64,000 bases of DNA from Escherichia phage saus132: sequence record NC_047884.1; one strand, written 5' to 3'. Under the pieces are notes generated by a model, which saw nothing but the letters and a program-made list of their open reading frames with translations, was not told where the DNA came from and searched no databases. Within the stretch, counting starts at the first letter, position 1, and each line of letters opens with the position of its first letter. Made by a program: the position numbers and the translations under genes. Of this stretch, positions 8,964 through 37,310 are shown piece after piece.

Positions 8964-9180
8964 AAAGTGGGAAACAAGGAAGTTTCCCGTAAAAGAACGT
9001 AAAACTTCTGTTTACGATACTGCGGAGAAACTATGTAGGGTTGTACCACCTCGTCTCGCGGGCATCCCTAACGTCTCCATATGGTTACTTAAACAACGGA
9101 AGACTCGTGTGTCTCTTCGCATTGGCTTTGAGTTAGATAAAGTCTATGCTGAACTTGCTTCTTTGCTCAAAGAATCGTAA
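8947..9180 (+). CDS. Hypothetical small protein
   Basis: ORF overlapping end of upstream gene; start set at internal ATG. Confidence 0.35.
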   Translation: MTAKNKKWETRKFPVKERKTSVYDTAEKLCRVVPPRLAGIPNVSIWLLKQRKTRVSLRIGFELDKVYAELASLLKES

Positions 9181-9188
9181 AAATTTAT

Positions 9189-9217
9189 TTGCTTTCAGAA
9201 AAATTTTTCTGTATAAT
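9189..9217 (+). promoter_or_regulatory. PN25-like strong early promoter
   Basis: AAATTTATTTGCTTTCAG-AAAATTTTTCTGTATAATAGATTCATAAATTTGAGAGAGGAG matches the published T5 PN25 sequence (from memory) almost base for base. Confidence 0.8.
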
Positions 9218-9248
9218 AGATTCATAAATTTGAGAGAGGAGTTTAAAT

Positions 9249-9953
9249 ATGGCTGGTTCTCGTAGAAAGAAACTTATCCATGAAATCCCTGATGAAACCT
9301 TTAAAAAGGTTATTGAACATCTAGAGAATGGTGGTACTAAGAAAGCAGCATGTGAAATGCTCGGCGTTTCTTCTAACCCAACTATGGAACGAATGATCGA
9401 GGAATGGAGAGATCGTCAGGTTCAAGTTGCGGAAATGAAAAAGAAGAAGCGCGGAACACTGATTGAAGGTGTTGAGCTTGCAAACGTAATTGAACAGTAT
9501 CTTTCTGGTGATTCTTTTGAAGAAATCGCTGATCGTAATTATCGTTCTGTAGCGATGATTAAATCTGTTCTAGAACGTTACGGTGCTCTGCTTCGTTTAA
9601 ATGATACTGTTGATCCATTGAATCCTCCATTGATTCCTGATGATGCAATGGCAGAGGAATTTGAAGTTGGTGAACTTGTTTGGGTTCCTGGCTATCAGTG
9701 TATTGGTGAAATCAAGAAAGCAATGACTAACCCAGTTGGTTGCTATCGTGTTTGGTTGTTATCAGAAGGTAAACAACAGAACGTTCACTATATGCACTAC
9801 GAATTAGCTTCTGTTAAACATCTGGAAAAGCTGGGAGTTGATGTTAAAGCTCTTGGCTTTAAATGGAGCCGTGAAGAAGTTATCACGTTGGTTAATGAAG
9901 CTGTTAAAGCTGCACTGAAACTCGATAAAGAGAAAGGAAAACGCCGTGAGTAA
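9249..9953 (+). CDS. Putative DNA-binding protein (N-terminal HTH)
   Basis: GGTKKAACEMLGVSSNPTMERMIEEW helix-turn-helix-like segment; directly downstream of PN25-like promoter. Confidence 0.55.
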   Translation: MAGSRRKKLIHEIPDETFKKVIEHLENGGTKKAACEMLGVSSNPTMERMIEEWRDRQVQVAEMKKKKRGTLIEGVELANVIEQYLSGDSFEEIADRNYRSVAMIKSVLERYGALLRLNDTVDPLNPPLIPDDAMAEEFEVGELVWVPGYQCIGEIKKAMTNPVGCYRVWLLSEGKQQNVHYMHYELASVKHLEKLGVDVKALGFKWSREEVITLVNEAVKAALKLDKEKGKRRE

Positions 9954-10200
9954 ACTAACTGATCTGTTAAAAGCTGGAGACGTAAAATATCTCCAGCGAG
10001 ATAGCTGGGAAAATAATACTTATTCTACCACTATCATCAAAGTAGATGTTGATAATAACAACATTATAGAATTTACTTGGTGGTGGTCTAAAGATGGGCG
10101 CACTAAACCCACGCTAGACGATGCATCGTGGAAAACCACTGAGCTAACTCTAGACGAAGCCCTAGCTGACGATTGGGAGATCGTTGAACTAGATGTGTAG
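9946..10200 (+). CDS. Hypothetical protein
   Basis: ORF overlapping upstream stop. Confidence 0.5.
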   Translation: MSKLTDLLKAGDVKYLQRDSWENNTYSTTIIKVDVDNNNIIEFTWWWSKDGRTKPTLDDASWKTTELTLDEALADDWEIVELDV

Positions 10201-10220
10201 CAGTTACTGAAAAATTTCAG

Positions 10221-10249
10221 TTGCTCAATCCTATAATTCTTGATATAAT
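10221..10249 (+). promoter_or_regulatory. Early promoter
   Basis: TTGCTC, 17 bp spacer, TGaTATAAT. Confidence 0.45.
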
Positions 10250-10307
10250 ATTCTCATAGTTTGAAAGAACTATTCTGTTTAATTCTTAATTAAGGAAATT
10301 CAAAAAT

Positions 10308-10718
10308 ATGACTACTCCAACTCAGTGGACTGATGAACTGTTCGAAAAAATGTCTTCCGATTACGTTGCTCGTATGGAGCAATTCCCAGAAGATGAGCGT
10401 CCGGGCGTTAGCATGGAAATTGTTAGCGAAATTGCTCAGGAAAATGGTGTAACTCCGAACGGTTTCCGTATGAAGCTGACCAAAGCAGGTCTGTATATCA
10501 AGAAAGCTGCTGGCTCTACTTCTAAATCAAGCGCATCTACTGGAGAAAAAGCTTCTGGTGGTTCTCGTACTTCCAAAGCTCAGGCTCACTCCGATCTTCG
10601 CTCTGCATTCTCTGATGCTGGCTTAGCACCGGACTTCCTGGACGACGCAATCATCGACAAGCTGACTGGTAAAGCAGCTGCTCATCTGGCAGAAGCTATC
10701 AGAGCTATCACTAAGTAA
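10308..10718 (+). CDS. Hypothetical abundant early protein
   Basis: Codon usage of highly expressed host genes (ctg, cgt, gct, tct), distinct from AT-rich neighbours. Confidence 0.6.
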   Translation: MTTPTQWTDELFEKMSSDYVARMEQFPEDERPGVSMEIVSEIAQENGVTPNGFRMKLTKAGLYIKKAAGSTSKSSASTGEKASGGSRTSKAQAHSDLRSAFSDAGLAPDFLDDAIIDKLTGKAAAHLAEAIRAITK

Positions 10719-10754
10719 TTCTTAGATAAATCCACCAACACAAGGAATACAGTT

Positions 10755-11051
10755 ATGAATAAAGCTGAAATTATTGCTCAATGCGAAAAATTTGGTGAGT
10801 TTTATCTTCATTACGAAAAACTTCGTCAGAAAGGAACCACGTATCTTCAGGGTACGATGGAATTTGATCCAGCTCAGGATAAATACCTGGCTGAGCGTAT
10901 TAAACGTGAGCGCATCCGTAAGCCGAAAGAGGATGAAATCCTCGTTTTCTCTCGTACTAACGATAGCTTCCGTTTCATTCCTGTTGCGAAAGTTCGCCGT
11001 GTGACGAGCCTCCAGTCAGAGTTAGATCGTGCTTCTCCAGTAGGCCGATAA
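10755..11051 (+). CDS. Hypothetical protein
   Basis: ORF with RBS AAGGAA; followed by terminator. Confidence 0.55.
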   Translation: MNKAEIIAQCEKFGEFYLHYEKLRQKGTTYLQGTMEFDPAQDKYLAERIKRERIRKPKEDEILVFSRTNDSFRFIPVAKVRRVTSLQSELDRASPVGR

Positions 11052-11061
11052 GAAACCAATT

Positions 11062-11083
11062 AGCCCCTATATGGGGCTTTTTG
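11062..11083 (+). terminator. Rho-independent terminator
   Basis: AGCCCC-tatat-GGGGCT followed by TTTTT. Confidence 0.6.
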
Positions 11084-11101
11084 TGTATTTGGGATATGTA
11101 A

Positions 11102-11410
11102 ATGAGCGATCAGGTAAATCAAAACTATGAAGGACACGTTGACGACCAGTCCATCATGCTTTGGGAGAAGGAGGGGGAACAAGTAAGACTAACCGTATCT
11201 GAATTTCGTGGGAATCTATACATGGGAATTCGTTACTGGCTCCAAGATATTACTGGAGAGTGGTTTCCAACGAAATCCGGCTTCTCTTTTCCTTATACCC
11301 TAGAAACTACATCACAGCTATTCTACGCTTTTACGCAAATCCTCAGTGAATCCGAGGTCTTGCATGAAGTACAGAAACGAGCTGAAGAACTCAAAGCCAA
11401 GAATGCCTAG
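11102..11410 (+). CDS. PC4-like single-stranded DNA-binding protein
   Basis: VRLTVSEFRGNLYMGIRYWLQD...PTKSGFSF resembles the PC4/Sub1 ssDNA-binding fold signature. Confidence 0.6.
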   Translation: MSDQVNQNYEGHVDDQSIMLWEKEGEQVRLTVSEFRGNLYMGIRYWLQDITGEWFPTKSGFSFPYTLETTSQLFYAFTQILSESEVLHEVQKRAEELKAKNA

Positions 11411-11423
11411 TTCTTGGCTTTTT
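11395..11423 (+). terminator. Rho-independent terminator
   Basis: GCCAAGAA-tgcctag-TTCTTGGC followed by TTTTT. Confidence 0.55.
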
Positions 11424-11438
11424 CTTTATAAATGTACT

Positions 11439-11466
11439 TGCTTTCATCCCTATTTTCTTATATAAT
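11439..11466 (+). promoter_or_regulatory. Early promoter
   Basis: TTGCTT, 16 bp spacer, TATAAT, then TAGTTATATAAATTAATGAGAGGGG block. Confidence 0.5.
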
Positions 11467-11495
11467 AGTTATATAAATTAATGAGAGGGGTGAAT

Positions 11496-11768
11496 ATGAA
11501 AAAGATAAAAATAAGTCCACTTAAACCTTTACCGTACATAGGACAGTCTTTAGTTCTTTCCTGGGAAGAAAAGCTCAATGGAGAGAAGGTACGTATGGTT
11601 CGACAGGGGTATAAACTTATATCTCTCGCTTACGAAGCAAACACATTAGTTGCTGATATTTACTCTCCAATAACTCAAAGAGTGGGAAGTACTACCTATC
11701 TTTGCTTATGTAAGAACTTTACATGGCAGGGGGATACTATTCAGCCTAAAGCATATGAGGTACAGTAA
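11496..11768 (+). CDS. Hypothetical protein
   Basis: ATG 11496 behind RBS GAGAGGGG (track start 11481). Confidence 0.5.
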   Translation: MKKIKISPLKPLPYIGQSLVLSWEEKLNGEKVRMVRQGYKLISLAYEANTLVADIYSPITQRVGSTTYLCLCKNFTWQGDTIQPKAYEVQ

Positions 11769-11963
11769 ATGGCAATAACACTTCCAAAGATTCAAGCAAA
11801 ACTTAATTTGCTCTCCATAGCAAGAATCAATTACCAGGATAGTATCGGCACTCCAAACCAGAAAGCGTACAAAGATGCGTGGTTGAAAGAAGCTGCTGAT
11901 TTAGCTGGTATGGCTGCGCAGTATAGTAAAGAACTCAAAATGGAAATCGCAGATGATGAATAA
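11769..11963 (+). CDS. Hypothetical small protein
   Basis: ORF abutting upstream stop. Confidence 0.45.
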   Translation: MAITLPKIQAKLNLLSIARINYQDSIGTPNQKAYKDAWLKEAADLAGMAAQYSKELKMEIADDE

Positions 11964-12927
11964 TGTAAAAGACTTTATTAAACGTTGTCAAGAAGCGTAC
12001 TACCAGGGAATGAGTCTTATTTCCGATGAAGAATATGATCGTCTGATTAAAAGATTCCCACTAGAGGAAGAAATCGGACCGAAAGGTGATATCCCTCATT
12101 TGTATCGTATGTATTCTTTGCAGAAAGTCTATTACGATCGTGGTGATAAAGCTCCATTCAACCCACTTGGTCAGGTTGAAACTGATAAGTTAGATGGTTG
12201 TGCGATTTCTCTATTATATATTAATGGTGAATTTATTCAAGCGTTAACTCGTGGTAACGGTATTCTAGGGAATGATGTAACGCATAATGTTAAAATGCTG
12301 AACATCCCTAAAACTATCTCCCAAAAAGTTCCAACTCAAATCACTGGTGAAGTTCTCATCACTAAAGAAGTAGAGAACAAACGTAACTATGCTTCCGGTG
12401 CTATTAACTTGAAAGATAGTGATGATTTCATGCAACGTATTGGTGAAGGTGGTTTAATCTTCGTTGCATATGGTATCCAGTGTTCAGCGGAAACAGTCGG
12501 TATTACAGAAGCCTATTTAAAAGATATGCTTTGGCTAGAGAATGAGAACTTCTTGACAGTTGTTAATGTTCGTTCCTTCTTTAAGTGGATTCCGACGGAT
12601 GGTAAAGTTGTTCGTATTAATGATAACAACAAATTCTTCCGTGAAGGTTGGACTAATAAATTTCCTCGCGGTGCATTTGCTATTAAAGAGGATGAAGAAG
12701 GCGAAATTACCACACTTGTTAAAGTTGAATGGCAAGTAGGGGCTTCTGGTAAAGTAACTCCAGTTGGTTATTTCGAACCGGTGATTATTGATGATGCCAC
12801 AATCGTTAAAGCAACTCTTAATAACGTTGATTATATTAACGCTCTCGATTTAGAGATCGGTTGCCAGATTCGAGTGATTCGTGCTGGTGGTGTAATCCCT
12901 TGTATAGTAGAGCGAGTATACGACTAA
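11953..12927 (+). CDS. NAD-dependent DNA ligase, N-terminal (adenylation) part of a split gene
   Basis: Adenylation motif KLDGCAISLLY (KxDG) in LigA-like context. Confidence 0.85.
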   Translation: MMNNVKDFIKRCQEAYYQGMSLISDEEYDRLIKRFPLEEEIGPKGDIPHLYRMYSLQKVYYDRGDKAPFNPLGQVETDKLDGCAISLLYINGEFIQALTRGNGILGNDVTHNVKMLNIPKTISQKVPTQITGEVLITKEVENKRNYASGAINLKDSDDFMQRIGEGGLIFVAYGIQCSAETVGITEAYLKDMLWLENENFLTVVNVRSFFKWIPTDGKVVRINDNNKFFREGWTNKFPRGAFAIKEDEEGEITTLVKVEWQVGASGKVTPVGYFEPVIIDDATIVKATLNNVDYINALDLEIGCQIRVIRAGGVIPCIVERVYD

Positions 12928-12977
12928 TTCGTAACCCTTTGCTACCCGTTTACCATGTCGGAATTATAAAGTGGTTA

Positions 12978-13006
12978 TTGACATTTTCGCCGCTTAGGTA
13001 TATACT
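12978..13006 (+). promoter_or_regulatory. Near-consensus sigma70 promoter between the two ligase ORFs
   Basis: TTGACA, 17 bp spacer, TATACT. Confidence 0.55.
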
Positions 13007-13070
13007 ATTATCATTCAGTTGAGGGATAGAAAGTTATGGCGAGGGTAAGCAAAGTTAGTTAAAATTGTAG

Positions 13071-13099
13071 TTGCTAAATGCTTAAATACTTGCTATAAT
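13071..13099 (+). promoter_or_regulatory. Early promoter before ligase C-terminal ORF
   Basis: TTGCTA, 17 bp spacer, TGcTATAAT, then ATTTATATAAATTGATAAGGAAG. Confidence 0.5.
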
Positions 13100-13129
13100 A
13101 TTTATATAAATTGATAAGGAAGAAATTTG

Positions 13130-13909
13130 ATGAAAATCGAAATTCCAACACAATGTCCCTCTTGTGGTTCTAAGCTAGATCTTGTCAACGGGCAATTATT
13201 CTGTAGGAATAAGTCCAACTGTCCAGCACAATCAAGTAAGTTAATCGAGAACTTCTGCACAAAAATGAAGTTAAAGGGCTTTGGCCCGAAAACTATTGAG
13301 AAGCTGGAACTGACTAAGATCTCAGAACTGTTTTACCTGACCGAAGAAGATTTGGTCGGAGCTGTGGGTAGCAAGGTTGCCGCTAAGTTGATTAGCGAGT
13401 TAAATACTAAGGTTCGCGGAGACATTGACTTTGGTTCGGTTCTCGGTTCTTTAGGAATTCCTCTTATTGGAGAGGTTGCAGCAAAGAAACTGTCCCAAAA
13501 TTGCACTAGCTTCCACGATGTGAAGGCTGACGGCAAGGCTGGAGAAAATTACAAAACCTGGCTAAATTCCCCACAAGGCAAGGATGTTATTGAATTACCA
13601 TGGAAATTCTCAACTGGTATTCGAGGTACTAAAGCTGATATCATCATTACGGATGATTTAGTTGCCCAGCCAAATGGAATCACGATCTGTATTACCGGAT
13701 CTTTGCAAGATTTTGCAAATCGAACGGATGCAACAAACTATTTAGAAAGTCTAGGATATACGGTTAAGAAATCCGTTACCAAAGACGTCAAATACCTAAT
13801 CTGTGAGGATGAATCAAAACGTTCTTCCTCATCTTATAAGAAAGCCGAAACGAATGGGATAGAAATCCTGTCGATTAAAGAACTATTGGAGAAAAATAAT
13901 AATGTCTAA
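13130..13909 (+). CDS. NAD-dependent DNA ligase, C-terminal part (zinc finger, HhH, BRCT-like)
   Basis: CPSCGSKL...CRNKSNCPAQ Cys4 zinc finger; GIPLIGEVAAKKL HhH-like; C-terminal BRCT-like region. Confidence 0.85.
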   Translation: MKIEIPTQCPSCGSKLDLVNGQLFCRNKSNCPAQSSKLIENFCTKMKLKGFGPKTIEKLELTKISELFYLTEEDLVGAVGSKVAAKLISELNTKVRGDIDFGSVLGSLGIPLIGEVAAKKLSQNCTSFHDVKADGKAGENYKTWLNSPQGKDVIELPWKFSTGIRGTKADIIITDDLVAQPNGITICITGSLQDFANRTDATNYLESLGYTVKKSVTKDVKYLICEDESKRSSSSYKKAETNGIEILSIKELLEKNNNV

Positions 13910-14669
13910 ACTGAACTGGAACGTAGAAGGTGTAACCGAGTCTCTGAAAGCAAAAGCCACTGCTCTGGGTGTTGCTGTAATCTCTCAAGAACAAGTAGCT
14001 GCTATCGCTGCTGAACTGGCTACCGAGACTGGTAAAGACGTTACCGCTCGCTCTGTTGGCTCTAAGCTGCGTAAAGAAGGTTTCGAAGTACAGAAAGCTA
14101 ACGAAGTACAGAAATCCCCGTGGACTCCTGAGCAGGAAGCTGAACTAGTTGATTTCCTGAACGCTCATGCTGGTCAGTATACTTACGCTGAAATCGCTGC
14201 TGCTGTAGCTGGTGGTCAGTTCGGTGCTAAGCAGGTACAGGGTAAGATCCTGAGTCTGGAAATGACTGCTTCTGTTAAGCCAACTGAAAAAGCTGCTGCT
14301 GTTCGTTCCTTCACTCCTGACGAAGAAACTGATTTCGTTAATCAGGTTGTTGCTGGTGCTACTATTGAAGCTATCGCTGCTCACTTCGGTCGTAATATTA
14401 AGCAGATCCGTGGTAAAGCTCTGAGCCTGCTTCGTGAAGGTCGTATCGCTGCTATGCCGGTACAGGAAACATCAAGTGCTAAGACTCGTGAAGATCTGTT
14501 AGAAGGTCTGGATCTGGCTTCCATGACTGTTGCAGAAGTTGCTGAGAAAACTGGTAAGTCTGAGCGCGGTGTTAAATCTATGCTGTCTCGTCGTGGTCTG
14601 GTTGCTAAGGACTATGATGGTGCTGCTAAGCGTGCTAAACTGGATGCAAAAGCTGCGGCTGCTGAATAA
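13902..14669 (+). CDS. Alanine-rich protein with three HTH-like repeats; likely abundant DNA-binding protein
   Basis: Three repeats of the pattern aEIAAxxG...KQIxGKxLSL; high-expression codon usage. Confidence 0.55.
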   Translation: MSKLNWNVEGVTESLKAKATALGVAVISQEQVAAIAAELATETGKDVTARSVGSKLRKEGFEVQKANEVQKSPWTPEQEAELVDFLNAHAGQYTYAEIAAAVAGGQFGAKQVQGKILSLEMTASVKPTEKAAAVRSFTPDEETDFVNQVVAGATIEAIAAHFGRNIKQIRGKALSLLREGRIAAMPVQETSSAKTREDLLEGLDLASMTVAEVAEKTGKSERGVKSMLSRRGLVAKDYDGAAKRAKLDAKAAAAE

Positions 14670-14684
14670 TCTGGTAAATTAAAC

Positions 14685-14720
14685 CTAAGGGGAGGGGGCT
14701 ATGCTCCTTCCCCTTTTTGC
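14685..14720 (+). terminator. Rho-independent terminator
   Basis: AAGGGGAGGGGG-cta-tgCTCCTTCCCCTT followed by TTTTT. Confidence 0.6.
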
Positions 14721-14751
14721 ATTTAGAAGGCACGAAAGCGTGCAAAGGAGA

Positions 14752-16224
14752 ATGACCTTGTTTAACGTGCAAGCTGTAGTGTTGAAGATGCTTCTCGCTT
14801 CTGAACAGAAGCAAATAGCATTGGAAACATTCTCAAAACTGCATAAAGATCATTTTAATGACGCTTTCTCCTCAATTTACCAAGCCGTCCAGAATTATTA
14901 TAAGAAATATAACGCAATGCCGTCCATTGACGCACTGATGCTTGAGGCCAATAGGAACGCCCGCCTTTCTCAAGCTCTTGTCGTCTTAGCTAACACTCAA
15001 ATTCCAGAAGTGAGCATGGAACAGGCACTTGAAGTCCTAGAAGCTGAATATACACAGGATCTATTCCTGAAACTTCTAGAAACAGACGTGCTTCAAGATT
15101 TAACAATGCTGGATCAGGGAGAAATTCTCAATCGAGTTGCCTCCCTTCACTTAAAATTAGAAGAGAAAGTAACGAATACTGGAAAGGTATTCAACGCAGA
15201 CACAATGCGTATTTTCCAGAGAGAAGAAGATACCAAACTGAACTTGATCGCTCTTGGTATTTGTAATGAGTTCGACGCTCAAATTGGTTTAGCTCGCACA
15301 GAAACGTTACTGCTTGGTGGTTGGCGTGGTACTGGTAAATCCATTATCTGTTCAAACATACAGGTTCAGCAATATTTGAATGGAGACATTGCTCCATATT
15401 TCTCAATTGAGATGAAAGAGCACGAAGTGTTTAGACGTAATCTGGCTATGTTAGCTGGAGTATCTGCATTAGCAATGCGTAATAACACTCTTGAAGGTGC
15501 TGCTCTGTTGAGATTAGCCAGAACTAGGGCTAGAATGTTTAATGGTGGTGAAGAGCTTTTCGATAGTTTCGTTAAGCAATACACTATGGCTAAAATGAGT
15601 GACTTCTATGATATGGAAAGTAAACTCCTTGAAGGCTATGAGCTTCACACTCCTATGATCATCGTTTACGATCCTGAACTGTCTATTACGACGGTTGACG
15701 TAGAATTAAATAAACTAGTTGCTAAGTATGGTGATAAGGTTACTGTAGCTCTTCTAGACTATATTAACCAAACAAGACTTCCAGATTCAAAGACCATTGA
15801 CATGTATGACTGGAAAGAACAGATGGTTGTTAGTTCGTCTTTCAAATCTATCTGCCAGAAACATAACGTGGCTGGTGTTGCTCCTTACCAGATTGACCAA
15901 GATGGTAGAACGCGTATGTCTAAAGGGATTCTTGATTCCGCAGATATGGCTGCTAATCTTAATGCTGCAAAAGCTGATAATGGTCAAGGTGCTATTATGT
16001 TTGACTTCGTTAAGACTCGTTCCTCTGATAGTGTGAAGTTTATGCCTAAGATGAACTGGGAAACTCTGCGAATGGATAACACTACCAACCTAGCAATGGA
16101 AGATATTGCGCAAATGGAAGCTGAGTTCGTTATTCCTATTGAAAAGGATAAACCAGCTCAACCTAAACGTGCTAAGAAAGACAAAGCTGAAAATTCAACA
16201 GGTGAACAGGCCAGCGATATATGA
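14752..16224 (+). CDS. DnaB-like replicative helicase (RecA-fold ATPase)
   Basis: Walker A GGWRGTGKS; track start 14701 lies inside the upstream terminator hairpin so start moved to ATG 14752 (or TTG 14758). Confidence 0.7.
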   Translation: MTLFNVQAVVLKMLLASEQKQIALETFSKLHKDHFNDAFSSIYQAVQNYYKKYNAMPSIDALMLEANRNARLSQALVVLANTQIPEVSMEQALEVLEAEYTQDLFLKLLETDVLQDLTMLDQGEILNRVASLHLKLEEKVTNTGKVFNADTMRIFQREEDTKLNLIALGICNEFDAQIGLARTETLLLGGWRGTGKSIICSNIQVQQYLNGDIAPYFSIEMKEHEVFRRNLAMLAGVSALAMRNNTLEGAALLRLARTRARMFNGGEELFDSFVKQYTMAKMSDFYDMESKLLEGYELHTPMIIVYDPELSITTVDVELNKLVAKYGDKVTVALLDYINQTRLPDSKTIDMYDWKEQMVVSSSFKSICQKHNVAGVAPYQIDQDGRTRMSKGILDSADMAANLNAAKADNGQGAIMFDFVKTRSSDSVKFMPKMNWETLRMDNTTNLAMEDIAQMEAEFVIPIEKDKPAQPKRAKKDKAENSTGEQASDI

Positions 16225-17111
16225 GTAGAATAACAGAACTACTTGATCTGAAAGGCATTGAATACAAAGACACAGGTGGGGACATCCTCATCTGTTGTCT
16301 CAATCCAGATCATGATGATAAACACCCAAGCTTGCGTATTGATCCTGAATCAGGTATTATGCATTGCTTGAGCTGTGGCTTCGGTAGAGGAATACCGAGC
16401 ATTTACCATTATTTTAATGAGACTCAGTACAGACAGTCCCCAAGATTGTCACAAGTACATAAAAAGATTTCAGAGATTAGGAATGGATCTACGAATCTTG
16501 CAATTCCTGAATCTGCTTACCTTTTCGAAGGTGATTTCCGAGGTATCAGTTCTAAGACCTTGAAGAAATATTTTGCTTTCCAACATCAAGCAGACTGGGA
16601 AGGCAGAATTGTATTCCCAATAACAGATGCTGTTGGACGCAATATCCTATTCCTGGGACGTTCTATAAACAGTTCTGCCCCTCCTAAATACTTAGTAAAA
16701 CCAAAACAAGTTTCACCACCGATTTTCCCTGTACGATATAATACACCAGTTCTTGTTCTAGTTGAAGGTATCTTTGATATGTTAAATCTAGAAGACAATG
16801 GTGTAGATTATGCTTCTTGCTGCTTTGGTACACATCAGTTTACATCTGATAACATTGCGGATAAGTTTAGTCCTTACATTATTGCTGGAGTAAGAGTAGT
16901 TGTTATCTTGCTAGATAATGATGCCTCTGGTAATAAAGCTGCCCAAGCACTAGCGAAGCTAATTCGTACAAAAACACGTTTAACACCTGTAGTTGGTAAC
17001 TTCCTTCTTCCAGAAGGCAAAGACCCAGGTGACTTAAATAAAGAAGAGATCGATATGTTGGCTCAACGTATTGAAATTTTAGTTGCCGAATCGCTCAAAG
17101 ATTTGGTATAA
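16221..17111 (+). CDS. DNA primase (zinc finger plus TOPRIM)
   Basis: CCLNPDH...HCLSCG zinc-binding segment; TOPRIM-like VLVEGIFD and ILLDNDASG. Confidence 0.8.
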   Translation: MSRITELLDLKGIEYKDTGGDILICCLNPDHDDKHPSLRIDPESGIMHCLSCGFGRGIPSIYHYFNETQYRQSPRLSQVHKKISEIRNGSTNLAIPESAYLFEGDFRGISSKTLKKYFAFQHQADWEGRIVFPITDAVGRNILFLGRSINSSAPPKYLVKPKQVSPPIFPVRYNTPVLVLVEGIFDMLNLEDNGVDYASCCFGTHQFTSDNIADKFSPYIIAGVRVVVILLDNDASGNKAAQALAKLIRTKTRLTPVVGNFLLPEGKDPGDLNKEEIDMLAQRIEILVAESLKDLV

Positions 17112-17112
17112 T
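17083..17112 (+). promoter_or_regulatory. Promoter upstream of DNA polymerase, -10 overlapping primase stop
   Basis: TTGCCG, 18 bp spacer, TATAAT (contains the primase TAA). Confidence 0.45.
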
Positions 17113-17173
17113 ATATTGGTAAGTTAGAGAAGAAACACTGAAGTTATACTTACTTACCAAAAGGAGACTAAAT

Positions 17174-19741
17174 TTGAAAATTGCAGTAGTTGATAAAGCT
17201 CTAAATAACACTCGTTATGATAAACACTTCCAGCTTTATGGTGAGGAAGTTGATGTATTCCATATGTGTAACGAGAAGTTATCTGGCCGTTTGCTGAAAA
17301 AGCATATTACAATCGGAACTCCAGATAACCCGTTCGATCCGAACGATTACGATTTTGTTGTACTAGTTGGTGCTGAACCTTTCCTGTATTTCGCAGGTAA
17401 GAAAGGTATCGGTGATTATACTGGTAAACGTGTAGAGCATGGAGGCTATGCCAACTGGATTGCAAGTATTAGTCCAGCTCAGCTACACTTTAAACCTGAA
17501 ATGAAACCAGTTTTCGATGCAACTGTTGAAAGTATTCATGACATTATTAATGGTCGTGAGAAGATTGCAAAAGCTGGTGATTATCGTCCTATTACTGATC
17601 CAGATGAAGCTGAAGAATACATCAAGATGGTGTATAATATGGTTATCGGACCTATCGCATTCGACTCCGAAACCTCAGCTCTGTATGCTCGTGATGGTTA
17701 TCTTCTTGGTGTTTCTATGTCTCACCAAGAGTATCAGGGTGTCTATATTGACTCTGACAGCATTACCGAAGTAGCTGTACATTATCTCCAGAAAATTCTG
17801 GATAGCAAGAATCATCAGATCGTTTTTCATAACTTGAAGTTCGATATGCACTTTTACTCCTATCATCTAGGACTTTCCTTCGAGAAAGCACATAAAGAGC
17901 GTAGACTTCATGATACCATGTTGCAACACTATGTTCTTGATGAACGTCGTGGTACTCACGGCTTGAAATCTCTGGCTATGAAGTATACTGACATGGGCGA
18001 TTATGACTTTGAACTGGATAAGTTCAAGGATGATTATTGCAAGGCACATAAGATCAAAAAAGAGGATTTCAGCTATGATCTGATTCCTTTTGATATTATG
18101 TGGCCATATGCTGCAAAAGATACCGATGCTACTCTGCGTCTGCATAACTTCTTCTTACCAAAAATTGAGAAGAACGAAAAGCTTTGCAGTCTATACTACG
18201 AAGTTCTGATGCCTGGTTGTGTATTCCTGCAACGTGTTGAAGATCGTGGTGTACCGATTTCCGTTGATCGCTTGAAAGAAGCTCAGTATCAGTTGACACA
18301 TCGATTAAATATGGCTCGTGAGAAGCTGTATACTTATCCAGAAGTCGTTCAGCTGGAGAAGAATCAGAACGAAGCGTTTAACCCGAACTCTGTTAAGCAA
18401 CTCCGTGTTCTTCTGTTTGATTATGTTGGTTTGACTCCAACTGGTAAACTGACGGATACAGGTGCAGATTCTACAAATGCAGAAGCTCTGAATGAACTGG
18501 CTACTCAGCACCCGATTGCTAAAACTCTGCTAGAGATTCGTAAGCTGACTAAGCTGATCTCTACTTATGTTGAGAAGATTCTTCTGAGCATCGATGCAGA
18601 TGGTTGCATTCGTACCGGTTTCCACGAACACATGACTACTTCTGGTCGTCTGAGTTCTTCTGGTAAGCTAAACCTGCAACAGTTACCACGTGATGAATCT
18701 ATTATCAAGGGTTGTGTAGTAGCTCCCCCTGGATATCGTGTAATCGCATGGGACTTAACAACTGCGGAAGTTTATTACGCTGCTGTACTGTCTGGTGACA
18801 GAAACATGCAACAAGTATTTATCAACATGAAGAATGAGCCGGATAAATACCCTGACTTCCACTCAAACATCGCACACATGGTATTTAAACTGACCTGTGA
18901 ACCACGTGATGTTAAAAAGCTGTTCCCAGCTCTGCGTCAGGCTGCTAAGGCAATTACCTTCGGTATTCTGTATGGTTCTGGCCCAGCGAAAGTAGCTCAT
19001 TCTGTTAACGAAGCTCTTCTGGAACAGGCTGCTAAGACAGGTGAACCGTTTGTTGAATGTACCGTTGCAGATGCTAAGGACTATATCGAAACTTACTTCG
19101 GTCAGTTCCCTCAGCTTAAGCGTTGGATTGATAAGTGCCACGATCAGATCAAGAACTTTGGATTCATCTATAGTCACTTTGGTCGTAAGCGTCGTCTGCA
19201 CAACATCCATTCCGAAGATCGTGGTGTTCAGGGTGAAGAAATCCGTTCTGGATTTAACGCAATCATTCAGTCTGCATCTTCTGATAGCCTGTTGTTAGGT
19301 GCTATTGATGCTGATGAAGAAATCCTGTCACTGGGTCTAGGAAAAGAGATGAAGATCGTCATGTTGGTTCACGACTCCGTGGTTGCCATTGTACGTGAAG
19401 ATCTGATCGATCAGTATAACGAGATTCTGATTCGTAACATCCAGAAGGATCGTGGTATTAGTATCCCTGGCTGCCCAATCGGTATTGATTCTGATTCTGA
19501 GAAAGGTGGTTCTCGCGACTACTCTTGTGGTAAGATGAAGAAACAGCACCCATCAATCGCTTGTATTGATGATGATGAATATACTCGTTATGTTAAGGGT
19601 GTATTACTCGATGCAGATTTCGAGTATAAGAAGTTAGCTGCAATGGATAAAGAGCATCCAGACCACAGCAAGTACAAGGATGATAAGTTTATTGCTGTAT
19701 GTAAAGATCTGGATAATGTGAAAAGGATTTTAGGTGCTTGA
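17174..19741 (+). CDS. Family A DNA polymerase with 3'-5' exonuclease domain
   Basis: 855 aa, the size remembered for T5 DNA polymerase; Exo I IAFDSET; motif B RQAAKAITFGILYG; motif C LVHDS; TTG start behind RBS AAGGAGA. Confidence 0.95.
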   Translation: MKIAVVDKALNNTRYDKHFQLYGEEVDVFHMCNEKLSGRLLKKHITIGTPDNPFDPNDYDFVVLVGAEPFLYFAGKKGIGDYTGKRVEHGGYANWIASISPAQLHFKPEMKPVFDATVESIHDIINGREKIAKAGDYRPITDPDEAEEYIKMVYNMVIGPIAFDSETSALYARDGYLLGVSMSHQEYQGVYIDSDSITEVAVHYLQKILDSKNHQIVFHNLKFDMHFYSYHLGLSFEKAHKERRLHDTMLQHYVLDERRGTHGLKSLAMKYTDMGDYDFELDKFKDDYCKAHKIKKEDFSYDLIPFDIMWPYAAKDTDATLRLHNFFLPKIEKNEKLCSLYYEVLMPGCVFLQRVEDRGVPISVDRLKEAQYQLTHRLNMAREKLYTYPEVVQLEKNQNEAFNPNSVKQLRVLLFDYVGLTPTGKLTDTGADSTNAEALNELATQHPIAKTLLEIRKLTKLISTYVEKILLSIDADGCIRTGFHEHMTTSGRLSSSGKLNLQQLPRDESIIKGCVVAPPGYRVIAWDLTTAEVYYAAVLSGDRNMQQVFINMKNEPDKYPDFHSNIAHMVFKLTCEPRDVKKLFPALRQAAKAITFGILYGSGPAKVAHSVNEALLEQAAKTGEPFVECTVADAKDYIETYFGQFPQLKRWIDKCHDQIKNFGFIYSHFGRKRRLHNIHSEDRGVQGEEIRSGFNAIIQSASSDSLLLGAIDADEEILSLGLGKEMKIVMLVHDSVVAIVREDLIDQYNEILIRNIQKDRGISIPGCPIGIDSDSEKGGSRDYSCGKMKKQHPSIACIDDDEYTRYVKGVLLDADFEYKKLAAMDKEHPDHSKYKDDKFIAVCKDLDNVKRILGA

Positions 19742-20231
19742 TTTCAAATTGCCCGTATATGCTTTACGGGCGTTTGTATCAATTGAGCAGGAAGGTGATT
19801 ATTCCGTAATTACAACAAGATATAATAAATATGTGCTAGATAACAGGAAGTTGCCTGGCACATTCTCTCAACGTAGATTAGACCTATTCGAGAAGCGGAA
19901 AGAATTACCTTATAAGCTCTATCCTATTCGTGGTAGAATATCAATGTTGTCCCAATTAGTTGGGTCAAAGCGTAGCCAGTTCATAGATTCTGATGGAAAT
20001 CTTATTAATTGGAAGAAAACTACGTTCTATGATGTTATCACGTCTAAAGTTCTGCATTCTGCAAGAATTTATAATGGAAAGTATCAATGTTATGTGGCCA
20101 AAGTTCCATATCCATTCGTACTATCCTATGTTCCAGCTTATATAAGCTATATTCTGGTAAATAATAGCCCTGTTATTTACCAAGTCCATCAAGAGGAGCC
20201 TGAAATTCCTAGACTTAGAATAAAATTATGA
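19734..20231 (+). CDS. Hypothetical protein
   Basis: GTG start behind RBS AAAAGGA; AT-rich. Confidence 0.5.
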   Translation: MLDFKLPVYALRAFVSIEQEGDYSVITTRYNKYVLDNRKLPGTFSQRRLDLFEKRKELPYKLYPIRGRISMLSQLVGSKRSQFIDSDGNLINWKKTTFYDVITSKVLHSARIYNGKYQCYVAKVPYPFVLSYVPAYISYILVNNSPVIYQVHQEEPEIPRLRIKL

Positions 20232-21574: not shown

Positions 21575-21575
21575 A

Positions 21576-22106
21576 ATGATAACACAAGATAAGCTCAAAG
21601 AACTTTTCGAGTATAACCCAGATACAGGTGATTTTACTCGTAGAGTAGCTAAAGGTAGAGCTGCAAAAGGAAGTATTGCTGGATCTCGTAACTCTAATGG
21701 TTATGTCTATATAAAAATAGATAAAATATCTTATCCTGCACATAGGCTTGCCTTCCTATACGTGGAAGGCAGGCTTCCTGAAGAGATAGACCATATTAAT
21801 CGTATAAGATGGGATAATAGGTGGAATAACTTGCGAGAGACCACACATCAACAAAACTGCAGAAATAGAAACACTAGAAGTACTTCTGGATATTTAGGCG
21901 TACATTGGGATAATAATTCTTCTAAATGGAAGGTAGAGATAACTAACTGTATAGGTGTTAAAATATACGGTGGGTTATTCCCTTATGAGGAATTAGAGTT
22001 AGCTATAGATAAAGCTAATGAACTTAGAGCACAGCATCTAGGCATGGATTCCAGACAAGAACTATTCAAAGGATATATTTGTCGACGTGAGGACTTAGAT
22101 AAGTAA
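21576..22106 (+). CDS. HNH homing endonuclease with AP2-type DNA-binding domain
   Basis: EIDHINRIRWDNRWNNLRETTHQQN (HNH_3-like) then SGYLGVHWDNNSSKWKVEI (AP2-like). Confidence 0.75.
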   Translation: MITQDKLKELFEYNPDTGDFTRRVAKGRAAKGSIAGSRNSNGYVYIKIDKISYPAHRLAFLYVEGRLPEEIDHINRIRWDNRWNNLRETTHQQNCRNRNTRSTSGYLGVHWDNNSSKWKVEITNCIGVKIYGGLFPYEELELAIDKANELRAQHLGMDSRQELFKGYICRREDLDK

Positions 22107-22114
22107 AATTGCAT

Positions 22115-22143
22115 TTGGCAACTGCTCATAATTATTGTATAAT
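22115..22143 (+). promoter_or_regulatory. Early promoter (first of a tandem pair)
   Basis: TTGGCA, 17 bp spacer, TGTATAAT, then ATACACATAAATTTGAGAGAGAAAG. Confidence 0.45.
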
Positions 22144-22214
22144 ATACACATAAATTTGAGAGAGAAAGTTTCGGATTGATAAGAAAGTCCGAAGCAGAAA
22201 AATAAAAATTGTAC

Positions 22215-22244
22215 TTGTCAAATCCTCCCGATTTAATGTATAAT
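22215..22244 (+). promoter_or_regulatory. Early promoter (second of a tandem pair)
   Basis: TTGTCA, 18 bp spacer, TGTATAAT, then ATATACATAAATTGATGAGAGA. Confidence 0.45.
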
Positions 22245-22271
22245 ATATACATAAATTGATGAGAGACAAAA

Positions 22272-22634
22272 ATGAAATTCTTTGATTACGAGAGAATTTA
22301 CCTCTTAGCTAGAGGAAACTCCGACCTGATTGTCAAGCTATTTAATAGAATGCTTGCAGAGCCTGATGCTCACCAGTTACTGGTCGGTTCTTCATTCATC
22401 TTGAATGAATCAACTATTGTTGATAACCCTTACAAATTGTCTAATAGACAACTGGCAGAATATCTAGGAATTCTAAGTCTACGAAATTATGCCGAATATA
22501 AGTTTACAAACGATCCGAGTTTGGACATGCAATATGTCCCCATATGGATACCACGTTCTGTAATCGACACTAACCCACTAATTGCAATCAATAAATCGAA
22601 GATAATCTTTAAAGAGGAAATAAAATATGGCTAA
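22272..22634 (+). CDS. Hypothetical protein
   Basis: ORF downstream of tandem promoters. Confidence 0.55.
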   Translation: MKFFDYERIYLLARGNSDLIVKLFNRMLAEPDAHQLLVGSSFILNESTIVDNPYKLSNRQLAEYLGILSLRNYAEYKFTNDPSLDMQYVPIWIPRSVIDTNPLIAINKSKIIFKEEIKYG

Positions 22635-23400
22635 GTCTTGGGGCGAAACTACTGGCGGTTCTAACGATAAAATCGACTTCCTGAAATTCAACAACGGTGT
22701 AACTCGTGTTCGTATCGTTTCTGGTGTTCTTCCACGTTATGTCTACTGGCTGACTAACAAAGATGGTAATGCAGCTCCGTTTGAGTGCCTGCGTTTCAAC
22801 CGTACTAAAGAGAGCTTCGTTCGCGGTAAAGCTGACCCGATTCACGAAATGGGCTTCTTCGAGAAAGAGCTGGACAAAGATGGTAATCGTGTTCCGCTGA
22901 AACCGAAGAAAAACTACATCGCTTTCGTTATCGACCGTTCTGATAACAAACTGAAAGTTATGGAAGTTAAAGCTACGATCCTGAAAGGCATCCAGTCTAT
23001 CATGAAGCAGCTGAAACTGTCCGACCCGTTCGATATCGATATTTCTATCGAGAAGAAAGGTAAAGGCTTCGATACTGAGTACGATGTACAGCAGATCGCA
23101 GCAATGCAGTTCCAGATGGCTCTGAAAGATCCTACTAGCGCAGAAGCTAAACTGCACGCCGCAGATGCCGATATCCTCGGTGAAGCTATGTGTGATGATA
23201 CTGGTGAGTTCATCAAGTTTGAAAAAGTTCCTTCTCTGGAAGAAACCTACCCGGTTCCGTCCTACGAAGAGCAGAAAGAAGCTATTCTCGCCTTCATGGA
23301 AGGTCGTGAGAAGCAAGACGGCGGTGACGCTAAGTCTGGTGGTGATGCTGGTTCTCAGAAAGGCATCGACGCTGAAGCTGCTAGCGATCTGGACGACTAA
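22627..23400 (+). CDS. Abundant early protein, possibly ssDNA-binding (acidic C-terminal tail)
   Basis: High-expression codon usage; acidic C-terminus ...EAASDLDD; RBS AAGAGGAAA; followed by terminator. Confidence 0.5.
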   Translation: MAKSWGETTGGSNDKIDFLKFNNGVTRVRIVSGVLPRYVYWLTNKDGNAAPFECLRFNRTKESFVRGKADPIHEMGFFEKELDKDGNRVPLKPKKNYIAFVIDRSDNKLKVMEVKATILKGIQSIMKQLKLSDPFDIDISIEKKGKGFDTEYDVQQIAAMQFQMALKDPTSAEAKLHAADADILGEAMCDDTGEFIKFEKVPSLEETYPVPSYEEQKEAILAFMEGREKQDGGDAKSGGDAGSQKGIDAEAASDLDD

Positions 23401-23405
23401 TAAAC

Positions 23406-23435
23406 CAAGGGGAGCTACGGCTCCCTTTCTTTTTA
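23406..23435 (+). terminator. Rho-independent terminator
   Basis: AAGGGGAGC-tacg-GCTCCCTT followed by TCTTTTT. Confidence 0.6.
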
Positions 23436-23439
23436 ACTT

Positions 23440-31678: not shown

Positions 31679-31683
31679 TATAA

Positions 31684-37202: not shown

Positions 37203-37227
37203 AGTTAATTTCTCCTCTTAATAACAA

Positions 37228-37256
37228 TATTATAATAGGATTGGAAAATTTTATCA
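37228..37256 (-). promoter_or_regulatory. Sigma70-like promoter upstream of distal tail protein gene
   Basis: Minus strand TTGATA, 17 bp spacer, TATAAT, then RBS AAGAGGAG. Confidence 0.4.
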
Positions 37257-37284
37257 AGAAATTTTTATTTTTCCATAAAGAAAA

Positions 37285-37305: not shown

Positions 37306-37310
37306 CAGTA

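Follow-up and report, generated by a model that had tools for sequence, protein, structure and literature searches.

The gene at 13902..14669 (+) of Escherichia phage saus132 is, by homology, the T5-family D5 gene, here as an ortholog in Epseptimavirus. We consider it probable, at roughly three chances in four, that its product is an abundant four-HTH coat of phage dsDNA, whose codons have been selected for near-stoichiometric output and which drives the early-to-late switch. D5 is an already known protein, and the flagged feature is real.

Identity of the gene

The 255-aa ORF is an annotated CDS in record MF431736.1, with which the window analyzed here (the whole stretch of 64,000 nt, which forms the final 64 kb of a T5-like phage genome) shares 100% DNA identity. 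It encodes a predicted 27.0 kDa dsDNA-binding protein orthologous to T5.118 (YP_006946.1), with 97.9% protein identity by tblastn against T5 (NC_005859) and with the same length and residue numbering. The protein falls in PHROG_323 ('transcriptional regulator, D5-like'; E = 9e-71), the similarity spanning residues 1-253 and so essentially its full length. In T5 the gene likewise follows ligB and precedes the helicase gene, and its promoter and terminator sequences are identical in kind to those here; there is no substantive difference between the two proteins, only in the genome that carries them (Epseptimavirus or the Tequintavirus T5). Matches to the gene at the DNA level are found in 513 T5-like phage records and homologs of the protein in 901 phage records, essentially all of them T5-like, and an alignment of 38 family members has a mean column identity of 57%. 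The T5 RefSeq note describes D5 as a DNA-binding protein on which DNA replication and late transcription depend and which is involved in expression shutoff. The protein had first been singled out as alanine-rich, which is correct: alanine makes up 17.6% of its residues, the second highest share among 118 genes.

Table 1. Coordinates in the window of D5, its predicted units and the associated genes and signals.
Feature	Position	Strand	Details and basis
P-N 26-like promoter	10221..10249	+	TTGCTC-17-TATAAT; sequence, T5 annotation positioned relative to the D3 start codon
D3 gene	10308..10718	+	136 aa; CAI 0.712; DNA-binding protein (annotation)
P-K 28b-like promoter	12978..13006	+	TTGACA-17-TATACT; scan, 11/12 matches; upstream of ligB-D5
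P-K 28a-like promoter	13071..13099	+	TTGCTA-17-TATAAT, extended -10 TG; scan, T5 annotation
ligB	13130..13909	+	NAD-dependent DNA ligase subunit B (annotation); CAI 0.337; stop overlaps D5 start by 8 nt
Shine-Dalgarno	13888..13891	+	GGAG, then a 10-nt A-rich spacer and the D5 ATG; read from the sequence
D5 gene	13902..14669	+	255 aa
HTH unit 1	13902..14105	+	residues 1-68; helices 11-22, 29-43, 49-58; AlphaFold2 model, conservation and charge, hhalign
HTH unit 2, Myb-like	14106..14297	+	residues 69-132; helices 76-88, 95-101, 109-118; weak Myb matches
HTH unit 3	14298..14477	+	residues 133-192; helices 139-150, 155-162, 166-178; hhalign, DNA repeat, model
HTH unit 4 and C-terminal Ala/Lys-rich helix	14478..14666	+	unit residues 193-239; helices 210-217, 221-231; C-terminal helix 240-254
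Predicted intrinsic terminator after D5	14687..14720	+	13-bp GC-rich stem, 3-nt loop, T-run; before the helicase gene
Tandem promoter-like sites (T5 P31A, P31B)	22115-22143, 22215-22244	+	upstream of the two-gene unit ending with D11
D11 gene	22627..23400	+	257 aa; CAI 0.770; single-strand DNA-binding protein; start overlaps upstream stop by 8 nt
Predicted intrinsic terminator after D11	23407..23428	+	scan; annotated terminator in T5 RefSeq

Codon usage

For CAI, codon weights were derived from a set of 30 E. coli K-12 genes (ribosomal proteins, EF-Tu, EF-G and rpoA); on this scale the set itself spans 0.55-0.84, as against 0.24-0.54 for 18 other E. coli genes. D5 reaches 0.776 and, with D11 and D3, takes ranks 2, 3 and 4 among the 118 genes of the genome, where only the major capsid gene (0.777) stands higher; the mean is 0.417 over the 55 genes of the window that are 80 aa or longer (sd 0.131) and 0.410 over the 118 genes of the whole genome (sd 0.118). 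When the same proteins are recoded at random according to the window's background codon usage, CAI comes to only 0.42 ± 0.03, against which the z values are 12.5 for D5, 12.3 for D11 and 7.7 for D3. Per-gene CAI had been proposed as the check on these genes, and all three are clear outliers. A principal component analysis of RSCU, which uses no host information, also places D5, D11, D3 and the major capsid gene together at one extreme of PC1, an axis that accounts for 27% of the variance and is closely correlated with CAI (r = 0.96).

The individual codons agree with the preference for ctg, cgt, gct and tct that the initial annotation had read as host-like in the three genes. In D5, CTG encodes 16 of 19 leucines, CGT 10 of 12 arginines, GCT 40 of 45 alanines, TCT 9 of 16 serines and GGT 18 of 19 glycines, as compared with 20%, 50%, 51%, 40% and 55%, respectively, in 15 neighboring genes. 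The accompanying contrast with AT-rich neighbors stands for overall GC content (0.478 versus about 0.39) but not for the third codon position, where D5 has a GC3 of just 0.32; the extra GC is contributed by the first two positions of Ala and Gly codons, and the preferred codons are mostly optimal ones that end in T or A. A regional or compositional cause was therefore rejected, given this GC3 and the low CAI of the adjoining upstream cistrons, each overlapping by 8 nt (0.337 for ligB before D5, 0.247 for the gene before D11). As ligB is probably on the same transcript as D5, the bias is gene-specific, and in D5, D11 and D3 alike it is not driven by GC. Strong bias in D5 is conserved in Proteus and Vibrio relatives: among the replication-module genes of each phage, D5 has the lowest Nc, with values of 31.2 in T5, 36.8 in Proteus phage PM135 and 31.4 in Vibrio phage Thalassa.

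These data support the assignment of D5, D3 and D11 as highly expressed early proteins. The earlier proposal that they are very abundant early proteins is sustained by their optimal codons, by T5-named promoters upstream of all three genes and, for D5, by reports that it is 'very abundant' in T5 and BF23 lysates, where it forms a major SDS-PAGE band (PMC10644984).

HTH architecture

The AlphaFold2 model of D5 (mean pLDDT 92.6, pTM 0.50) resolves by DSSP into four three-helix units, which conserved linkers connect. Small HTH units had been recognized at the outset, which the model and hhalign bear out, but their number is four and not three. At the profile level, unit 3 is a clear duplicate of unit 2 (hhalign probability 96%, E = 2e-9), and a DNA-level repeat with 189-nt spacing links the same two units. 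The remaining pairs match at 72% (units 3 and 4), 44% (units 1 and 4) and 22% (units 1 and 2, units 1 and 3), the last two alignments being in register across most of the unit. An A-I-A-A motif (GCTATCGCTGCT and variants) occurs in the second helix of each of the first three units, at spacings of 189 and 180 nt, with a fourth copy in the linker between units 3 and 4; this motif is probably what was first seen as three repeats.

Conservation within the protein is highest in the third helices (mean column identity 0.81 versus 0.59 elsewhere, p = 2e-8), whose net charges are +4, +2, +4 and +3 in units 1-4; the recognition helix is ARSVGSKLRK in unit 1 and AKQVQGKILS in unit 2. Such conserved basic third helices suggest that all four units bind DNA. 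Taken with the model and hhalign, they give D5 the features that define a tandem three-helix HTH protein with a conserved basic third helix. The model thus points to four HTH units rather than one HTH motif, which may be new in the searchable literature. As a separate observation, a variant with five HTH units exists (P0173).

Known families are matched only weakly. Sigma70_r4_2, HTH_23, Myb and HTH_33 from Pfam fall on different units, and all matches of saus132 D5 lie below the gathering cut-offs; the best is Sigma70_r4_2 (25.1 bits versus a cut-off of 25.7), the other three being weaker, and some family members do pass the cut-off (best E = 5.8e-9). Unit 4 resembles sigma-70 region 4. With respect to a wing after the recognition helix, the model has isolated bridge residues beside units 1 and 4 only and no strand of at least 3 residues, and the HTH_33 and DprA_WH matches are weak. 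Sequence searches of the PDB gave nothing significant, with best E values of 0.59 for the single protein and 0.007 for the family profile (engrailed homeodomain). Foldseek of the D5 model against the PDB gave no match at E ≤ 0.001 (best E = 0.1); the top matches are to various multi-HTH proteins, and their TM-scores reach only about 0.2 because the four units are loosely placed relative to each other. Against viral models, the same search returned only D5 orthologs and generic HTH proteins. No inverted repeats were found within the D5 gene.

Chains that combine several three-helix HTH modules with basic third helices are also known from Myb R2R3, paired/POU, the bipartite HTH domains of Tc3 and CENP-B and the multi-HTH CRISPR-repeat-binding protein Cbp1. 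D5 matches tandem-HTH proteins weakly, both in sequence (Myb, HTH_23, the engrailed homeodomain) and in structure (PDB 9pfo, 6taz, 1u78 and 2lvs), and at greater distance its profile picks up long arrays of Myb-like or HTH_7 repeats. These families are low-copy sequence-specific regulators or transposase domains, however, whereas D5 is reported to be very abundant and a general dsDNA binder.

Transcription unit and replication module

The spacer between ligA and ligB is 99% identical to that of T5, where RefSeq annotates P-K 28b at the corresponding position, and a scan of the plus strand between 13130 and 13902 found no promoter-like site. From these sequence features, ligB and D5 are probably co-transcribed from tandem P28b/P28a promoters, with a predicted terminator directly after D5. 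The terminator RNA folds at -25.5 kcal/mol (z = -2.7), and its position and form are conserved in T5, Proteus phage PM135 and Vibrio phage Thalassa. The D5 codon bias and the predicted downstream terminator thus recur in all three Demerecviridae genera examined, which may also be new. No RNA family was found with Rfam over 9000-24000, and a tRNA scan of the window found none, the tRNA cluster of the phage being located outside it.

D3, D5 and D11 are part of a replication module that also holds the origin-binding protein, D2, ligase A/B, helicase, primase, polymerase, D10 and D12/D13. The order ligB, D5, DnaB-like helicase is the same in the window, mar003J3, T5, Proteus phage PM135 and Vibrio phage Thalassa. 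D3 consists of an N-terminal three-helix HTH, a disordered Ser/Gly/Lys linker (residues 68-86) and a C-terminal helical domain. Its N-terminal domain matches D5 unit 1 in profile-profile comparison (86.6%, E = 4.5e-6), and the helix boundaries agree in the two models; this domain is homologous to D5 unit 1 and so its paralog, a relationship that may likewise be new in the searchable literature. D3 differs from D5 in having one HTH, and the helical domain beyond the linker is unrelated. A Foldseek search with the D3 model gave nothing significant.

Both genes have been linked to retron defense in T5. D5, a 26-kDa monomer by mass photometry, binds retron msDNA and triggers a type IX retron defense system, from which the D5 mutations G53D and G232D allow escape (bioRxiv 10.64898/2026.07.11.737809). 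We checked these positions on the sequence, and they map in or beside the recognition helices of units 1 and 4. T5 D3, which shares the codon signature and module of D5, is also mutated in retron-Kva2 escapers but, unlike D5, does not trigger the retron when expressed alone (bioRxiv 10.64898/2026.07.11.737809).

Proposed role of D5

A model is proposed in which selection for efficient translation has brought D5 codons to match those of E. coli ribosomal-protein genes, because the protein would be needed in near-stoichiometric amounts. D5 would build to high levels after pre-early functions have started host DNA destruction and would bind phage dsDNA broadly via four basic recognition helices per monomer, acting as a phage-encoded architectural, chromatin-like protein. 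Such a coat would help to keep polymerases from acting inappropriately on T5 DNA, which is naturally nicked, and would alter template accessibility, turning early transcription off and late transcription on. D3 and D11 would be the other stoichiometric DNA-binding proteins of this module, which is proposed as the reason for their shared codon signature. Broad coating by all four units and its drive of the early-to-late switch are what we infer from these data. McCorquodale is said to have described, in 1979, D5 phenotypes that concern phage replication and phage gene expression. Broad or cooperative dsDNA binding by D5 and its effects on polymerase presumably go back to the biochemistry of 1979-1983 (McCorquodale 1979; Fujimura & Roop 1983) and to database notes.

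High copy number and strong codon optimization accompany an architectural or coating role on DNA in T4 gp32, HU, Fis and H-NS. The likeness to D5 is one of functional analogy and not of homology. The folds differ, the Pfam scan of D5 (E ≤ 1) shows neither HU (Bac_DNA_binding) nor H-NS or Fis, and HU/IHF, H-NS and Fis are absent from the top Foldseek matches; D5, moreover, binds as a monomer with four HTH units. By this analogy, D5 may work like bacterial nucleoid-associated proteins without being a member of that group. Some observations count against this model. With a pI of 6.8, D5 is near neutral overall, unlike the classical basic nucleoid proteins. A viable retron escaper with W74* in D5 has also been reported (bioRxiv 10.64898/2026.07.11.737809), which is hard to square with an essential stoichiometric protein unless the population was mixed or the stop suppressed.

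D5 could instead be mainly a sequence-specific activator of late genes or a sigma-like factor, with one or two HTH units reading late promoters, host RNA polymerase being recruited or modified, and the abundance of the protein incidental. We regard this as unlikely, even though several records name D5 a 'transcription factor' and one an 'RNA polymerase sigma factor', PHROG_323 is filed under transcription regulation, the T5 RefSeq note makes D5 a requirement for late transcription, and unit 4 matches Sigma70_r4_2 in 32 of the 38 family members. Unit 4 of saus132 D5 has only short, sub-threshold r4 (25.1 versus 25.7 bits) and r3 matches, and in Pfam neither sigma region 2 (no Sigma70_r2 at E ≤ 1) nor any other core-binding region is detected. 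Membership of the sigma-70 family, which takes both region 2 and region 4, was rejected on this basis. Moreover, four conserved recognition helices and codons at capsid and ribosomal level point to a copy number far above promoter-specific needs, in keeping with a major band in lysates (PMC10644984). Against the coat model, abundant D5 could still act at specific sites, and the likeness of unit 4 to sigma-70 region 4 would fit direct contact with RNA polymerase.

The abundance and DNA binding of D5 would also suit a protective coat against host nucleases, restriction/methylation or other defenses, so that D5 would serve anti-defense rather than regulate replication or transcription; that a retron senses it fits too, as defenses often sense essential or counter-defense proteins. 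However, D5 is an early and not a pre-early gene, on second-step-transfer DNA, and therefore cannot shield phage DNA that is just entering the cell. In the BF23 study, methylation avoidance could not be tied directly to such a DNA-binding-protein mechanism, because a restriction-sensitive relative is also unmethylated, and D5 matched no known anti-defense family in Pfam and PHROG scans. We consider this reading improbable.

Still less can be said for action on the host nucleoid or another part in host takeover, for which the initial annotation had made all three proteins candidates. D5 is abundant, DNA-binding and made early, and T5 D5 expressed alone is mildly toxic to E. coli (bioRxiv 10.64898/2026.07.11.737809). 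D5, D3 and D11 lie, though, in the conserved replication module and not among the pre-early takeover genes of the terminal repeat, and they are annotated for replication and late transcription, DNA binding and single-strand DNA binding, respectively. The documented D5 phenotypes concern phage replication and phage gene expression (T5 RefSeq note). Host DNA degradation in T5 infection is an early event and is partly controlled by pre-early genes of the first-step transfer, which enter before the D5 DNA (bioRxiv 10.64898/2026.04.02.716235). A host-directed role is accordingly very improbable.

Finally, recent horizontal acquisition from an enterobacterial chromosome, suggested by a GC content (0.478) above that of the neighbors and by E. 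coli-like codon usage, is effectively refuted: blastn (word size 11) against 5,426 complete E. coli genomes (20,395 records) gave no match, the homologs are essentially all in T5-like phages (901 records), the GC3 of 0.32 is low for an average E. coli gene, and the same bias is present in the capsid gene and in the D5 orthologs of Vibrio and Proteus phages.

Implications

The analysis is mostly confirmation and reveals no new kind of system, but the four-unit reading of D5, its paralogy with D3 and the conserved bias and terminator bear on how D5 binds DNA and triggers type IX retrons. Extending the coat model, we tentatively suggest, as a possibility that we rate below even odds, that D5 and its one-HTH paralog D3 form a modular 'beads-on-a-string' chromatin on replicating T5-family DNA, that coat density times the early-to-late switch, and that the DNA-bound HTH surface is what defenses such as retron-Kva2 evolved to detect. 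If so, four recognition helices per monomer would lie along the duplex and the number of HTH units would be an evolvable parameter. Codon usage alone flagged the stoichiometric DNA-binding proteins D5, D3 and D11, together with the major capsid protein, in a T5-like phage, and codon bias is therefore usable as a predictor of protein abundance in phage genomes.

Results

The gene at 13902..14669 (+) is D5 of a T5-like phage; the protein is known, and earlier work has documented that it is abundant and binds DNA. It is 100% identical in five T5-like phage genomes, including MF431736.1 (chee130_1, Epseptimavirus), a 121,986-nt record whose last 64,000 nt form the window (window position = record position - 57,986). 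Megablast matched the gene in 513 phage records, 511 of which cover at least 80% of it. The 255-residue product is 97.9% identical to T5 D5 (tblastn) and matches PHROG_323 ('transcriptional regulator, D5-like'; E = 9e-71); tblastn of the protein retrieved 901 phage records, essentially all T5-like, with hosts in Escherichia, Salmonella, Klebsiella, Proteus, Vibrio, Aeromonas and Pectobacterium. The T5 RefSeq note describes D5 as DNA-binding, needed for DNA replication and late transcription, and playing a part in expression shutoff. Two other genes with similar codon usage, 10308..10718 (+) and 22627..23400 (+), correspond to T5 D3, annotated 'DNA binding protein', and to D11, annotated as a single-strand DNA-binding protein (PHROG_1607, E = 2e-103). 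The window runs from an early replication module on the plus strand through late structural genes on the minus strand to the right terminal repeat, and the conserved order of the module (origin-binding protein, D2, D3, ligA, ligB, D5, helicase, primase, polymerase, D10, D11, D12/D13) places all three genes within it.

The initial annotation had singled out these three genes for host-like, high-expression codon usage, and this observation is real and statistically strong. With codon adaptation index (CAI) weights from 30 E. coli K-12 genes (ribosomal-protein, rpoA, EF-Tu and EF-G genes), and all annotated genes scored, D5, D11 and D3 reach 0.776, 0.770 and 0.712 against a window mean of 0.417 (sd 0.131; 55 genes of at least 80 aa), and only the major capsid gene (0.777) exceeds D5 in the window. 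The same four genes head the whole genome (mean 0.410, sd 0.118; 118 genes of at least 79 aa), where D5, D11 and D3 are outliers ranking just behind capsid. For comparison, the E. coli reference genes span 0.55-0.84 and 18 other E. coli genes 0.24-0.54. When the protein sequence was held fixed and codons were sampled from window background usage, CAI fell at 0.42 +/- 0.03, giving z values of 12.5 (D5), 12.3 (D11) and 7.7 (D3); amino-acid composition thus does not account for the bias. Principal component analysis of relative synonymous codon usage, which used no host information, placed the same genes at the extreme of axis 1 (27% of variance; r = 0.96 with CAI).

Codon counts confirmed the reported use of ctg, cgt, gct and tct: D5 uses CTG for 16 of 19 Leu, CGT for 10 of 12 Arg, GCT for 40 of 45 Ala, TCT for 9 of 16 Ser and GGT for 18 of 19 Gly, compared with 20%, 50%, 51%, 40% and 55% in 15 neighbouring genes. 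D5 has a GC content of 0.478 and a GC3 of only 0.32, so that its excess GC stems from codons for Ala and Gly; what is favoured is not GC but translationally optimal codons, of which many end in T or A. AGA, TTA, CTA and ATA are almost absent from D5 but make up 13-23% of the respective amino-acid families in the neighbours, and the phage encodes tRNAs for three of them (anticodons tct, taa and tag). These Arg(tct), Leu(taa) and Leu(tag) genes are among the 28-30 tRNA genes at 29041-42881 of MF431736.1, outside the window, and read codons that ordinary phage genes use often. Exactly those codons are shunned by D5, D3, D11 and the capsid gene, which instead use codons of abundant host tRNAs, such as CTG. 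Also outside the window, the genes at 45676-46314 and 47884-48399 of the record (CAI ~0.71) rank fifth and sixth of 118. One matches phrog_1491 ('tail fiber protein') and the other phrog_4516, which carries no functional annotation; the latter gene is a candidate for an abundant protein. At the bottom of the CAI range in the window (0.22-0.24) are homing-endonuclease-type genes (HNH, Hef-like) at 21576-22106 and 1533-2219, consistent with mobile insertions or weak expression.

The cistrons directly upstream of D5 (ligB, encoding ligase subunit B; CAI 0.337) and D11 (CAI 0.247) each overlap the following gene by 8 nt, and their low values exclude a regional compositional effect. Within the replication module, the effective number of codons reaches its minimum at D5 in T5 (31.2), in Proteus phage PM135 (36.8) and in Vibrio phage Thalassa (31.4), with D11, and D3 where annotated, nearly as low. 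The codon bias thus reflects selection on D5 itself. The two junctions (13902-13909 and 22627-22634; ATGTCTAA and ATGGCTAA) have one geometry, in which the start (ATG) of a high-CAI gene overlaps the TAA stop of the low-CAI gene before it; each start has a GGAG or GAGG Shine-Dalgarno sequence 9-10 nt upstream with an A-rich spacer, and each gene has a strong predicted terminator at its 3' end.

A promoter scan detected no promoter-like site between ligB and D5. The NAD-dependent ligase is split into genes A and B, parted by a 200-nt spacer (12928-13129), and the counterparts of P28b and P28a that serve ligB-D5 fall between the two subunit genes. This spacer is 99% identical to that of T5, where both sites carry promoter annotation. 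P25, P26 and P28 are said, from the work of Bujard and colleagues, to be among the classical very strong T5 promoters. The predicted D5 terminator recurs at the same place and with the same form in T5, PM135 and Thalassa; D5 and D11 each close a short unit that runs from promoter-like sites to a predicted terminator. The scan placed no promoter-like site in the stretch from the D5 terminator to the helicase start, and expression of helicase and primase therefore probably relies on read-through of this terminator. T5 RefSeq (NC_005859) starts the replicative helicase D6 at the ATG equivalent to 14701, in the terminator hairpin loop, which is probably a mis-annotation; MF431736 instead uses TTG 14758, with a good AAGGAG Shine-Dalgarno sequence at 14745-14750, and ATG 14752 is also in frame.

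Predicted helices of D5 and expression signals of D5, D3 and D11 (helices in residues, other features in window positions)
Feature	Location	Strand	Remarks
D5 unit 1	11-22/29-43/49-58		AlphaFold2 model
D5 unit 2	76-88/95-101/109-118		AlphaFold2 model
D5 unit 3	139-150/155-162/166-178		AlphaFold2 model
D5 unit 4	(205-207)/210-217/221-231		AlphaFold2 model
D5 C-terminal helix	240-254		AlphaFold2 model; Ala/Lys-rich, after unit 4
Promoter counterpart P-N 26	10221-10249	+	Precedes D3; T5 annotation
Promoter-like site	12978-13006	+	Strong, sigma-70-type; ligA-ligB spacer; counterpart of T5 P-K 28b
Promoter-like site	13071-13099	+	Strong, sigma-70-type; ligA-ligB spacer; counterpart of T5 P-K 28a
Predicted terminator	14687-14720	+	13-bp GC-rich hairpin and T-run, directly after D5
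Promoter counterparts P31A, P31B	22115-22143, 22215-22244	+	Precede D11 unit; T5 annotation
Predicted terminator	23407-23428	+	After D11; similar to that of D5

The AlphaFold2 model of D5 (38-sequence alignment; mean pLDDT 92.6, pTM 0.50) predicts confident domains with loose placement relative to each other. Model and profiles bear out the proposed helix-turn-helix (HTH)-like repeats and put their number at four rather than three; an A-I-A-A motif (GCTATCGCTGCT) in helix 2 of units 1-3, among DNA repeats spaced by 189 and 180 nt, is probably the source of the lower count. Profile-profile comparison gave 96% (E = 2e-9) for units 2 and 3, 72% for units 3 and 4, 44% for units 1 and 4, and 22% for unit 1 with either unit 2 or unit 3, the last two alignments being in register across most of the unit; by single-sequence comparison, units 2 and 3 alone are clearly significant (z = 7.2). 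Conservation in the protein peaks in the third helices (mean column identity 0.81 versus 0.59 elsewhere; Mann-Whitney p = 2e-8), which carry net charges of +4, +2, +4 and +3 in units 1-4, whereas helix 1 is acidic in units 2 and 3 (-4 in both). This pattern would be expected if all four modelled units contacted DNA. Pfam matches were weak (HTH_33, Myb, HTH_23 and Sigma70_r4_2 in units 1-4, respectively), all falling under curated cut-offs for this protein, and no related solved structure was found by sequence or by fold (PDB, Foldseek). An exhaustive profile search returned 582 cluster representatives at E <= 0.001, and most full-length members have 235-260 aa. The metagenomic homologue P0173 (309 aa) has five units, with unit 2 in tandem duplicate, and the number of units therefore varies within the family; more distant matches string 6-10 Myb-like or HTH_7-like repeats into long arrays.

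The N-terminal 70 residues of D3 match D5 unit 1 (55% by single sequence-profile; 86.6%, E = 4.5e-6, by profile-profile comparison with hhalign), and the D3 model (pLDDT 75) has helices 9-23/28-45/50-59 in agreement with that unit, which together mark D3 as a partial paralogue of D5. A disordered Ser/Gly/Lys linker (residues 68-86) then leads to a second, conserved helical domain with an invariant DKLTGKA, for which no relatives were identified.

Discussion

Most likely, D5 is made early and in abundance and binds double-stranded phage DNA. Our basis is its identity, extreme and conserved codon optimization, T5-annotated promoters, conserved predicted terminator and four-HTH architecture with basic helices; DNA binding, abundance, early shut-off, and the need in replication and late transcription come from the literature. 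The initial annotation had anticipated an abundant early protein, in agreement with the codon optimization and upstream promoters, and the proteomics of infected cells that it proposed is answered for T5 and BF23 lysates, in which the predicted transcription factor D5 is very abundant (PMC10644984). Purified T5 and BF23 virions are without D5 (PMC10644984); in Yersinia phage phiR2-01, D5 was listed by mass spectrometry among the major virion-associated proteins, with no explanation offered (PMC8624392).

A 2026 preprint (bioRxiv 10.64898/2026.07.11.737809) reports that T5 D5, a 26-kDa monomer mildly toxic to E. coli by itself, triggers the type IX retron-Kva2, and gives an AlphaFold3 prediction in which D5 uses an HTH to bind the retron msDNA. 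Changes in escapers were G53D, W74*, V149I and G232D in D5, and E30Q and G85D in D3. The T5 residue numbers fit the saus132 D5 protein exactly; G53 lies within the unit 1 recognition helix and G232 directly after that of unit 4. In escape phage T5.1 the premature stop W74* in D5 is reported to accompany three missense changes. This stop would spare HTH unit 1 alone, which is surprising given the described need for D5 in replication and late transcription.

D5 could instead be a sequence-specific late activator or sigma-like factor, and unit 4 does resemble sigma region 4, but no region 2 is detected in the protein and its abundance far exceeds the need of a promoter-specific factor. A protective anti-defence coat is possible, although D5 is made too late to shield entering DNA. 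Action on the host nucleoid or in host takeover, as first proposed, is disfavoured by the gene position, by the documented D5 phenotypes and by its timing with respect to host DNA degradation (bioRxiv 10.64898/2026.04.02.716235). That the gene was acquired horizontally from the host is refuted: blastn against 5,426 complete E. coli genomes gave no match, D5 is spread among T5-like phages, and its bias is conserved in Proteus and Vibrio relatives.

The four-unit HTH architecture, the D3-D5 domain relation and the cross-genus conservation of bias and terminator are modest additions that we did not find stated in the searchable literature. For D5 as a binder of phage duplex DNA, a mechanism is proposed in which the four recognition helices of every monomer would lie along the duplex, and replicating phage DNA would be coated by many monomers in an architectural, chromatin-like layer. 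Such a layer would curb improper polymerase activity on the nicked T5 genome and, by altering template accessibility, bring about the early-to-late switch. The near-stoichiometric demand for D5 would account for its codon usage, and the same logic would apply to D11 and D3.
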